Positions 326-5,437 of a stretch of 64,000 nucleotides of DNA are shown in pieces. The DNA lies in assembly GCA_918797485.1 (NCBI GenBank), contig CAKKNE010000004.1:620001-684000 (forward strand). The letters run 5' to 3'. The notes under the pieces are model-generated. The model was not told where the DNA came from, made no database searches, and saw nothing but the letters and a program-made list of their open reading frames with translations. Position numbers and translations under genes: made by a program. Each line of letters starts with the position of its first letter. Position 1 is the stretch's first letter. The stretch comes from Pelagomonas calceolata (taxonomy: Eukaryota).

Positions 326-3300
326 TCACCGCTGCCGGCTATGCATATAGGGCTGCTCTAGAGGAGCGAAAAGACGTGGGCTTGACCACGACAAGGCGGA
401 ACGCCACCTATTTTTGCGTGGGCTTGACCACGCCACGGCGCGACGCCACCTGTTTGCAATGCGGGAACGTCGGTGGTCCTCGAGGAGCGCGACGATCTCT
501 GCGTGGCCCTCGCGTTGGGCAATCGCCAGCGGCGAGCGTAGGAGCTTGCGGATGAGCCGCGCATCGACACCCGTCTCCTTCTCGCCGTGGTCGTAGGTGA
601 TGTCGTACTTGCCATTACCATGGTCTCGGCTGACTTTTCCGGGGCAATATTCTCGGCATCGATACCGTGCCTCGACCACGTCGCCCTCCCGGTATTCGGC
701 GCCATCAAGGGATTCGTCGTCGCGTGGCACCGCGGCCCCACGCTCAAGCAAGAGCCGTGCCGCCTCGACGTGGCCCTCCTCGCAGGCGATGTACAGGGGC
801 GTTCGGCCGTTCTTGTTCGCCCGGTCGACCTCCGCGCCTTTATCTAGCAACAGCTGCGCTGCGTCGACGTGGCCCTTGCGGCAGGCGGCGAACAGCGGCG
901 TCCGGCCGTCGTCGTCCGCCAGGTTAATATCCGCCCCACGATCCAAGCAGAGTTGTGCCGCGTCGACGTGACCTTCGTAGCACGCGACGAGCAGCGGCGT
1001 TGCGCCTTTCCACTTCCCCTTCTCTGCCGCCCGGTCGACCTCAGCGCCACGCTCCAGCAACAGCCGCGCCGCGTCGATGTGGCCCTTCTTGCACGCGATG
1101 AATAATGACGTCGCTCCACCCCCTGGAGCTTGGTTGACCGCGGCGCCGTCGTCCAGGAGTTGAGTCATCGCGTCGACGTCGCCGGTCCGTGCTGCAGCGT
1201 GAAGTGGGAATTTCAAATCCAATTGTTCCTCGAGCAGCGCGACGACCGCGTCATGATGATTATTCTTTGCTACGTCCAGCGGCGTCATACCGTTCTTAGA
1301 CGCCTGAGTAATTTCCGCGCCCTTATCTAACAACAGCCGCGCCACGTCGACATGACCGTTGCAGCAGGCATAGAATAGCGGCGTCCAGTCGTCCTTATCC
1401 GCCCGATCGACCTCCGCGCCTTTCTCCAGCACCAGCCGCGCCGCTTCGACGTGGCCCTCGTGGCAGGCGGCGAACAGCGGCGTCCATCCGTCCTCTTCCG
1501 CTTTGTCGACCTCAGCGCCTTTGTCCAGCAGCAGCCGCGCCGCGTCGACGTGGCCCTTCCAGCAGGCGGTGAACAGCGGCGTGTTGCCCCACTTATCCGC
1601 CCGGTCCACCTCCGCGCCGTTGTCCAGCAGCAGCCGCGCCGCCTCGACGTGGCCGCCCTCGCACGCTACGAATAGAGGCGTCGCGCCGTCCCCCTTTGCA
1701 TCTATCTCTGCGCCGCCAGCAAGGACCTGCGTCATCGCGTCGGCGTCGCCGGTCCGTGCCGCAGCGTGAAGTGGGAATTTCAAATCCAATTGTTCCTCGA
1801 GCAGCGCGACGACTGCACCATGATTACAATGCTTTGCGACAAGCAGCGGCGTTGCGCCTTTCCACTCCTTCTTCTCTACCGCCCGGTCGATCTCCGCGCC
1901 GTTATGCAGCAACAGTCGCGCGGCGTCAACGTGGCCGTGTTCGCACGCTACGACTAGGGGCGTTGCGCCGTCCCCTTTAGCTTGGTCGACCGCGGCGCCG
2001 CCGTCCAGGAGATGCGTCATCGCGTGGATATCGCCTGCCTTAGCAGCGGCGTGCAGCGGGTAAAAGTGCTCCTCGACCAGGGCCACGACGGCTACCTGAT
2101 TCATGTGTTTTGCCACGGTCAATGCATCCATGCCGCGCCTGGGACCAGACGTCGCCGCCCGTGTGACATCGGCGCCCCGCCCTAGTAATAGCCGCGCCGC
2201 GTCGATGTGGCCGTTGCAGCAGGCGAACAGAAGCGCTGTCTGGCCTTTAACGTTTACTTGCTCCAAGTCCGCGCCCCGCTCCAATAAAAGCCGCATCAGA
2301 TCTGTGTGACCACCAAGGGTGGCGACCATCAACGGCGTCGCACCCTCCATTTCACGCCAATTTGACGTGCGGTCGACCTCGACGCCGCGGTCCAATAACA
2401 ACCGCGCTGCGTCGACGTGGCCATTCGAGCAGGCAGCGAACAGCGGCGTCTGGCCGTCCTGGTCCGCCCGGTTACTCTCGGCGCCAAGCACCAGCAACAG
2501 CCGCGCCGCGTCAGCGTGGCCGTTCAGACACGCTGAAAACAACGACGTCATGCCGTTCCTGTTCGCCCGGTGGATCCTGGCACCGCGATCCCACAACAGC
2601 AACGCCAAGTTGGCGTGGCCGTTCGCACATGCAATCCATAGTGGCGTCGCGCCGTCCTCGTTCGCCCGCTCTATCTCTGCACCACGGTCCAGCAACAGCC
2701 GCGCGGCTTCGACACGGCCAGCGAGACTCGCCGTCCAGAGCGGCGTCTCACCATTCTCCCTCGTCTGGTCGACCGCGGCGCCGCCGTCCAGGAGTTGCGT
2801 CATCGCCTCGAGACCGCCTGCTTTGGCAGCAGCGTGCAGCGGGTCGAGGTGATCCTCGAGGACTTCGACTATCTCCGCGTGCCCCTCGCGTCGGGCAATC
2901 GCCAGCGGCGAGCGTAGGAGCTTTCGAATCAAGCGCGCGTCGACGCCCGTCTCGTTATCCAAGAAGTCGACTTCGTATTCGATGTCGTACGTGCCGGCAC
3001 CACGGTCTCCGCTGATTATCGCGGGTTGGTATTCGTCACCACCCTGATACCTGACGTCGACCACATCGCCCTCGTGAAACTTATCGCCGCCGCATCCTTC
3101 GGGGGATTCGTCGCCGTCGTCACCTTGGATCTCCGCCCCGCGCTCCAACAACAGCTTGACCACAGCAACGTGTCCTCGTTCGCAGGCGTAGCGAAGCGGT
3201 GTCAGACTGTACTTATCTTTGTGGTTCGCGTCGGCGCCGTGCTCCAGCAATAGCTGCACCAAGTCGATATGGCCTTCCGCACACGCGAAGAAAAGTGAGG

Positions 3301-5437: not shown

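Follow-up and report, generated by a model that had tools for sequence, protein, structure and literature searches.

Enzymes of the RelA/SpoT homologue (RSH) superfamily are pyrophosphokinases with a nucleotidyltransferase fold. One of them, the bacterial anti-phage protein CapRel, is said to carry a zinc-finger-like antitoxin domain and to modify tRNA, its RSH toxin domain reportedly being released when a fused sensor binds an invader protein. Compared here with such systems is a gene of the alga Pelagomonas calceolata that joins a synthetase domain of this superfamily to tetratricopeptide repeats (TPRs) and ankyrins, at 326..5437 on the minus strand of a 64,000-nucleotide stretch (the window; contig CAKKNE010000004.1 of assembly GCA_918797485.1, 620,001 to 684,000); all coordinates are those of the window, and all features of the gene lie on its minus strand. 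Eukaryotic alarmone synthesis is known from plastids, ppGpp has been reported in animals without an obvious synthetase, and (p)ppApp is unreported in plants or algae (available text of PMC10107265). A survey (PMC3153485) lists divergent synthetase-only genes (divRel) from fungi, from Dictyostelium and from two diatoms, along with a stand-alone hydrolase from Aureococcus; the divRel genes, compared by description only, are not described as TPR fusions in the available text of that survey, and that of the diatom RSH paper PMC6881373 does not mention TPRs.

Closest to the Pelagomonas enzyme are bacterial RelV and the exported alarmone synthetases (EAS), the latter defined by an export signal or secretion domain. 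AaEAS is taken here, as an unchecked assumption, to be a certain KDRF..GYRD protein of Amycolatopsis azurea. The supplement of PMC12691689 gives KDRF..GYRD for that protein and KSRQRALEK, DLARAT, KNRF..GYRD and EVQLHL for RelV of V. cholerae, and the paper describes VpEAS and AaEAS as making (p)ppGpp only and as lethal to E. coli when cytoplasmic; its survey is limited to bacteria, and its available supplements have no Aureococcus or Pelagomonas entry. The Pelagomonas protein shares with RelV, VpEAS and the other EAS enzymes (PMC12691689, as far as its motifs are given) the set K-x-R-x-R-A-x-x-K, DxAR, KNRF, GY[RQ]D, ExQxH and HxxYE, is likewise a synthetase without a hydrolase, and falls with them on one tree branch against RelP/RelQ. 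Unlike them, it is eukaryotic and belongs to a multigene family, has a myristoylation-type N-terminus and C-terminal TPR and ankyrin arrays, and shows neither a Sec signal nor a secretion domain (PAAR, MuF, LXG or eCIS) by Pfam or at its N-terminus. Its D184, R187 and E247 align with D327, R330 and E382 (derived numbering) of the toxin Tas1, which is also its best PDB profile match; it differs from Tas1/Apk1 and Apk2 in having GY[RQ]D rather than GxN at synthetase motif 3 (Syn3), no PAAR or MuF delivery domain and no adjoining immunity gene, its neighbours being a cupin-like gene and XPF.

The domain order, N-terminal synthetase followed by C-terminal TPRs, is that of Tde-SAS (DsRel) of Treponema, a non-toxic protein in which the TPR represses synthesis (as described in PMC10434055). 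Tde-SAS is bacterial and has four 34-aa TPRs conserved among species, whereas here variable 42-aa repeats of kinesin-light-chain (KLC) type follow a RelV-clade enzyme, and the two are probably independent fusions, although DsRel is absent from the tree described below. In fungi, RelA_SpoT is the effector domain of rare NLRs (<1% of annotations, a predicted role), in which a eukaryotic synthetase domain likewise stands ahead of ANK, TPR or WD repeats and the KLC-type TPRs are positively selected (PMC4986451, in part). The Pelagomonas protein has no NACHT or NB-ARC switch, and NLR/STAND membership was rejected, as neither domain is matched by Pfam and no unassigned stretch is big enough to hold one. 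The closest functional analogy is CapRel, reportedly also a single polypeptide of RSH domain and sensor, from which this eukaryotic gene differs in its TPR and ankyrin repeats.

The gene is a single open reading frame (ORF) of 1703 aa that needs no intron and begins at its first Met, the frame being open upstream to 6016 without an in-frame Met. PolyA RNA of run X24, with reads placed at 98% likeness, covers it in the sense direction over its whole length (25/25 bins, 415-5589, depth 5.6-38) and starts just upstream of the first Met; the 2 joints listed are both within repeats and neither is intron-like. The single long ORF with RelA/SpoT-like domain, TPRs and ankyrins described in an initial annotation, made from sequence alone, is confirmed. 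DNA contigs of X1 and X2 match the gene without differences, none of them spanning it entirely and X1 possibly being the source data. Contig depth in both is raised over synthetase, TPR and ankyrin bins, an indirect sign of further paralogues in the organism; none was found within the 64-kb window.

The synthetase domain (aa ~103-290, 4568..5131), of RelV/EAS/Tas1 type by fold, profiles and tree, carries APLKGRDRA (4975-4949), DIARG (4888-4874), KNRF (4789-4778), NGYQDILMN (4762-4736) and CELQIH (4702-4685) in the order the initial annotation gave, and after them what it had not listed, the fifth synthetase motif SHTVYE (4648-4631). Its key residues are K158, R162, K166, D184, R187, Y228, D230, E247, Q249, H251, H265 and Y268. 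The Pfam RelA_SpoT match is weak (E 0.015, 16 bits, below the 27-bit cut-off, with the N-terminal 312 aa). An AlphaFold model of the domain from 46 sequences has a predicted local distance difference test (pLDDT) score of 87.6 and gives 39 Foldseek matches at E<=1e-3, all RSH enzymes among the matches listed. In the VIA structural comparison RelP is best (Z 14.5, root-mean-square deviation 3.7 over 159 residues) and the best 26 rows are all RSH; RelP, RelQ, CapRel, Tas1 and SaEAS reach Z 10.6-14.5 over residues ~120-290, as against Z<=7.5 for polymerase-beta folds. Of 140 aligned stretches spanning ten checked positions, from clusters <50% identical, 136 retain K158, R162, K166, D184, R187 and E247. 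The match to the synthetase fold and the catalytic D and E (D184 and E247 in the family alignment), which had been proposed as checks, are thus both present, and by fold and Syn1-Syn5 residues the domain is an RSH-superfamily synthetase domain. The word nucleotidyltransferase in the initial annotation suits the fold and not the reaction, which would be pyrophosphoryl transfer, that of a pyrophosphokinase. A helical linker (aa 291-350, 4388..4567) leads into the TPR solenoid in the structure models (aa 1-580: pLDDT 90, predicted template modelling score 0.73).

Within the superfamily, the expected kinship to RelA/SpoT and small alarmone synthetases can be refined, as the nearest kin are RelV, EAS and Tas1 and not RelA/SpoT or RelP/RelQ. 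A profile of 13 sequences matches YwaC (E 4.8e-5) and Tas1 (E 1.1e-4), and a broader one of 30 sequences has Tas1 as its best PDB match (E 1.2e-8) ahead of YwaC (E 3.4e-6). A quick tree was built from 79 domain rows, namely this copy, a selection of close homologues, 18 representatives that had been looked up, 30 taken at random, and bacterial relatives; it does not contain Tas1, Apk2, SaEAS, DsRel or long RSH enzymes, and its family rows were picked by profile. In it 61 family rows form one branch (SH-aLRT, an approximate likelihood ratio support, 95) that lies among RelV-like, eCIS-like and actinobacterial toxin domains, and the group made up of all these is split from 5 RelP/RelQ rows with support 100. 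Judged by its sequence, then, the domain belongs with the RelV/EAS/Apk1-like clade, in which motif set and tree both place it. RelP/RelQ membership was rejected on the tree split and on DIARG, GYQDIL and ELQIH standing in place of DxxGxR, GYxSxH and EIQIRT. The sole match in 72,556 plasmid records was a Photobacterium protein of RelV-like type, extended at its N-terminus and 28% identical over 159 aa. Tandem RelV-like genes (L026, 2800-3588 and the next ORF) lie on a Photobacterium record of 2.1 Mb that is classed as a plasmid. Two scans of viral contigs gave 34 and 41 pattern matches with no relative among them, and phage records gave nothing matching the synthetase domain of the window; a hypothetical protein of Bordetella phage vB_BbrM_PHB04 (MF663786.1, 36058-36501) is 36% identical to the synthetase domains of the protein P0119. 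In prokaryote genomes 1 of 82 pattern matches was relevant, a RelP/RelQ-like gene, and in 301 genomes of one phylum there were weak RelP/RelQ-like matches in 3. With NCBIfam, 1 of 13 family members matched YjbM (E 0.007).

The domain is part of what is apparently an undescribed, large family of eukaryotic proteins, in which synthetases of the RelV/EAS clade are joined to variable TPRs. A word search returned 58 proteins, 56 of them close relatives (42-87%), with precomputed TPR domains in 51/58 and ankyrin in 3/58; 10 are named from four Aureococcus strains, one strain having at least 4 paralogues, and the closest named relative is from P. calceolata itself (85% in the synthetase domain). When 1.84 billion representatives were searched by profile, 5717 clusters matched at E<=1e-3, 1924 at E<=1e-10 and 291 at E<=1e-30; the first two tiers include bacterial relatives. 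TPRs come after the synthetase domain in 112 of the best 150 representatives, and in 94 of the 97 among these with a tail >=150 aa; Pfam finds TPRs in 56 of 70 representatives scanned. Synthetase plus TPR is therefore the family core, being constant where ankyrins, tails (SPRY, SAP-like, GNAT or a second synthetase) and N-termini vary, and a YE[FY]FR extension that RelV does not have is conserved. Named sources among 30 looked-up proteins are Triparma, Cylindrotheca (2) and one EukProt entry, and named members of the E<=1e-30 family are pelagophytes, a diatom and a parmalean; most looked-up rows are metagenome records whose eukaryotic label we infer. Two Aureococcus members are labelled RelA/SpoT domain-containing in UniRef. 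A full-text literature search, outside which most subscription journals lie, found no paper describing the family, and the supplements of PMC3153485 and PMC7229694 may list members.

Other architectures occur. One family member (L004, 5261-8581) combines about ten TPRs with ankyrins and, at its C-terminus, a SPRY domain. Four proteins (P0002, P0077, P0107 and P0119) have two synthetase domains each, the C-terminal one of P0002 (aa 854-1033) being divergent and outside the TPR-family branch. P0225, which the tree places close to the base of the TPR family, joins a protein kinase to a related KDRL..GYRD synthetase domain and represents a second eukaryote-like architecture. Among metagenome copies, several (L006, L008, L012-L015 and L017) are broken by stops, frame breaks or insertions within the synthetase domain or beyond it, a picture to be expected from birth-and-death evolution, from introns or from errors of assembly.

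The TPR array (aa 351-578, 3704..4387) consists of five 42-aa KLC-type units of Pfam TPR_10/TPR_12 and a capping helix, and its best Foldseek match is the KLC1 TPR (E 4.7e-12). Its 126-bp units had been called near-identical and are not so, their identity to each other being 61-79% in DNA and 38-74% in protein. The ankyrin array (aa ~581-1660, 458..3697) has about 23 repeats in internally duplicated blocks (73-79% DNA identity), in agreement with the more than 20 counted earlier; Pfam lists 5 TPR_10 and 23 Ank stretches in all. Two Agenet/Tudor-like inserts in it, 77% identical in DNA over 228 bases, had been overlooked: the second (548..685) matches Pfam Agenet (E 0.0033) and Tudor_5 (E 0.0089), both below cut-off, while the first (2918..3082) is recognized by its likeness to the second and has no Pfam match of its own. 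Of the sensor arrays first proposed, the TPRs are the conserved candidate for sensor and gate, the ankyrins being a rare addition.

Enzyme and repeats have evolved differently. The synthetase domain is under purifying selection, with a ratio of nonsynonymous to synonymous substitution (dN/dS) of 0.09-0.19 against 8/8 loci, and as a control it gave no significant result in the M1a/M2a codon test (twice the log-likelihood difference, 2dL, 0). The closest relatives are 87-94% identical to this copy in the synthetase domain and 50-67% in the TPR region, and the N-terminal region tracks a different subgroup than the synthetase, which suggests recombination among paralogues. Repeat number varies, with 0-7 units matched per protein. 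In 210 TPR units the scaffold does not change, and variation of about 2.9-3.8 bits is found at positions 3, 7, 10, 14, 18, 22 and 36. Positions 7, 10, 14 and 18 correspond to canonical TPR positions 2, 5, 9 and 13, those of the binding groove. Across 72 units from 16 sources, the codon test gave 2dL 50 (F3x4) and 69 (F61), with omega 2.3-2.8 at positions 7, 18, 25 and 36; 12 recombination-only simulations all stayed below this (maximum 23.6), but 4 of the 12 passed the nominal 5% level, so that recombination inflates the test, and the simulated trees did not reach the observed length (8.4-11 vs 12.3), for which reasons the sign of positive selection at some TPR positions is suggestive. A multigene family with a constrained enzyme and variable TPR positions makes an immune-like evolutionary pattern.

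The reading that we favour, with a little less than even confidence, is that this transcribed member of an algal family is a one-protein sensor-effector outside the plastid that would make (p)ppGpp on a trigger, probably a foreign protein. The protein would sit in the cytosol with a weak myristoyl anchor, its TPRs would repress the synthetase, and binding of a ligand would release the repression, much as CapRel is said to be released. Such gating is suggested by the regular position of TPRs behind the domain together with the TPR repression of Tde-SAS (as described in PMC10434055). The released enzyme would produce (p)ppGpp, as KNRF..GY[RQ]D is shared with RelV while (p)ppApp makers have GxN, and growth arrest may follow, ppGpp being reported to inhibit the growth of yeast (PMC5527313, in part). 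A role against invaders is proposed because TPR positions appear selected, TPRs diverge faster than the synthetase, Aureococcus has several paralogues and fungal NLRs offer a parallel.

A number of points weigh against this reading, among them the composition of the tree and the inflation of the codon test given above. Conservation extends to about two thirds of the TPR positions; in the wide family many members show TPRs that have diverged, or EF-hands or different domains at the N-terminus; the 12 near-identical members of one cluster would suit housekeeping signalling as well; and transcripts seen without any known challenge are no pointer to infection. Motifs foretell the product only loosely, because motif swaps left the specificity of Apk2 unchanged (PMC12226406, in part) and a clade member, SaEAS, has both nucleotides as products (PMC12691689, in part). 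This copy moreover has Pro165 in the Syn1 helix (1/46 in alignment A2) and Gln229 where Arg is usual (Gln in 3/150).

The strongest rival, unlikely as it seems, is a regulated cytosolic (p)ppGpp enzyme answering internal cues such as a host partner, calcium or nutrient stress, in the manner of Tde-SAS or a calcium-activated plant RSH. EF-hand patterns, MSP, Dpy-30 and other host-type domains in relatives, TPRs of the peptide-binding KLC type, and the non-toxic, TPR-repressed Tde-SAS (PMC10434055, in part) all fit it, as does the uneven expression across four runs that share one sample label. In a comparison at 93% likeness, for which 6-12% of each RNA run was read and the conditions behind the runs are not given, the catalytic-bin signal is 13.7 in X24 and 0-0.19 in the three other runs; the middle part of the gene is likewise much lower there, and the adjoining NFU gene shows the opposite trend, lower in X24 and higher in the other three. 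However, paralogue expansion, variable repeat number, mosaic paralogues and the apparently selected TPR positions of the pelagophyte subfamily fit an arms race better, and there are toxins among the nearest bacterial kin.

Somewhat less likely again is an enzyme gated in the same way whose product is (p)ppApp, draining ATP as Tas1 and Apk2 do, a mixture, or a pyrophosphorylated tRNA or other acceptor. Tas1 is the best match of solved structure by profile (VIA Z 12.1), Syn2 DxxR and Syn4 ExQxH follow the Apk pattern, SaEAS provides a precedent for a double product (PMC12691689, in part), CapRel is structurally close (VIA Z 13.3), and the YE[FY]FR extension is family-specific. Set against this is Syn3: the (p)ppApp makers Tas1 and Apk2 have GYSGVN and GxN there (for Apk2, PMC12226406, in part), whereas this protein has GYQDIL, with the Asp in 148/149 family stretches, as in the GY[RQ]D of RelV. 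Membership of the Apk1/Apk2 (p)ppApp synthetases was rejected on that ground. The tRNA-modifying toxSAS enzymes are weaker in Foldseek and unmatched by the sequence profile. In our judgement the product is most likely (p)ppGpp, with (p)ppApp or both well behind and any other product less probable still.

It is quite improbable that this copy is a weakened or inactive paralogue, a scaffold or a decoy in an otherwise active family, as its private Pro165 and its unusually long, internally duplicated ankyrin tail might suggest. The catalytic residues are all present, the transcript is full-length, the nearest paralogues are 92% identical with dN/dS about 0.1, and one distant relative (P0149) also has Pro at position 165.

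The N-terminus bears on location. MGSGAS (5420..5437) is a predicted N-myristoylation motif at the true start, as first noted, and probably a weak anchor, with no Cys or basic cluster close by. MGxxx[ST] stands at residue 1 in 40/56 close homologues and G2 is invariant in 14/14 aligned loci, but a PROSITE-type myristoylation pattern is uncommon in the wide family, starting 21 of 114 representatives that look N-complete, and the motif is mainly a subfamily trait. Only 99 aa precede the synthetase domain, without a Pfam match; residues 7-99 (5141..5419) are helical in the AlphaFold model and of no assigned family, and an EF-hand identity tried for them found no support from Pfam or PDB. Some distant relatives (P0090, P0114 and P0198) have an EF-hand pattern ahead of the synthetase domain. 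As stated earlier, HD domain and plastid targeting are both lacking: Pfam finds no HD hydrolase domain in the protein, and no signal-peptide-like hydrophobic stretch is seen (the highest hydropathy over 11 residues of the N-terminus is 0.65, no dedicated predictor having been run). Plastid long RSH enzymes (RSH1-4), which share the superfamily and have the HD domain and a bipartite plastid presequence, were therefore rejected as its class. Although plastids are where the known algal RSH enzymes act (PMC6881373 and PMC10107265, in part), a plastid RSH of that kind or an assembly chimera is very improbable and largely refuted, the one by these absences and the missing upstream Met, the other by RNA over the whole ORF, the agreement of the X1 and X2 contigs and the recurrence of the synthetase-TPR-ankyrin order in P0019, P0045 and L004.

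Of the neighbouring genes, the XPF/ERCC4 gene (5753-8536, plus strand) is divergently transcribed from the synthetase gene, a pairing found in 2/24 metagenome loci (L016 and L022, 88-91% identity) whose contigs end within the synthetase domain. On the other side a highly expressed cupin-like gene has its last exon (1-220, plus strand), with an intron ending near position 50. Further off, a 2124-codon open frame (39754-46125, plus strand) is preceded by three near-copies of one ~70-aa start at 38912, 39051 and 39754.

These conserved, transcribed synthetases without plastid targeting make cytosolic alarmone signalling in eukaryotes directly testable. To our knowledge the antiviral defences of phytoplankton are barely known, and if the TPRs sense invaders, the protein would be a single-protein, nucleotide-based immune receptor in abundant phytoplankton, and another bacterial conflict enzyme would have been recruited to eukaryotic immunity. 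More doubtful than the favoured reading of this one protein, and still a real possibility, is that marine microalgae have a cytosolic alarmone innate immunity, in which a bacterial toxin-type (p)ppGpp synthetase acquired once and fused to diversifying TPR sensors would have spread into hundreds of lineages, as a eukaryotic counterpart of the direct sensing of invaders by CapRel and as the first dedicated family of non-plastid ppGpp synthetases among eukaryotes.

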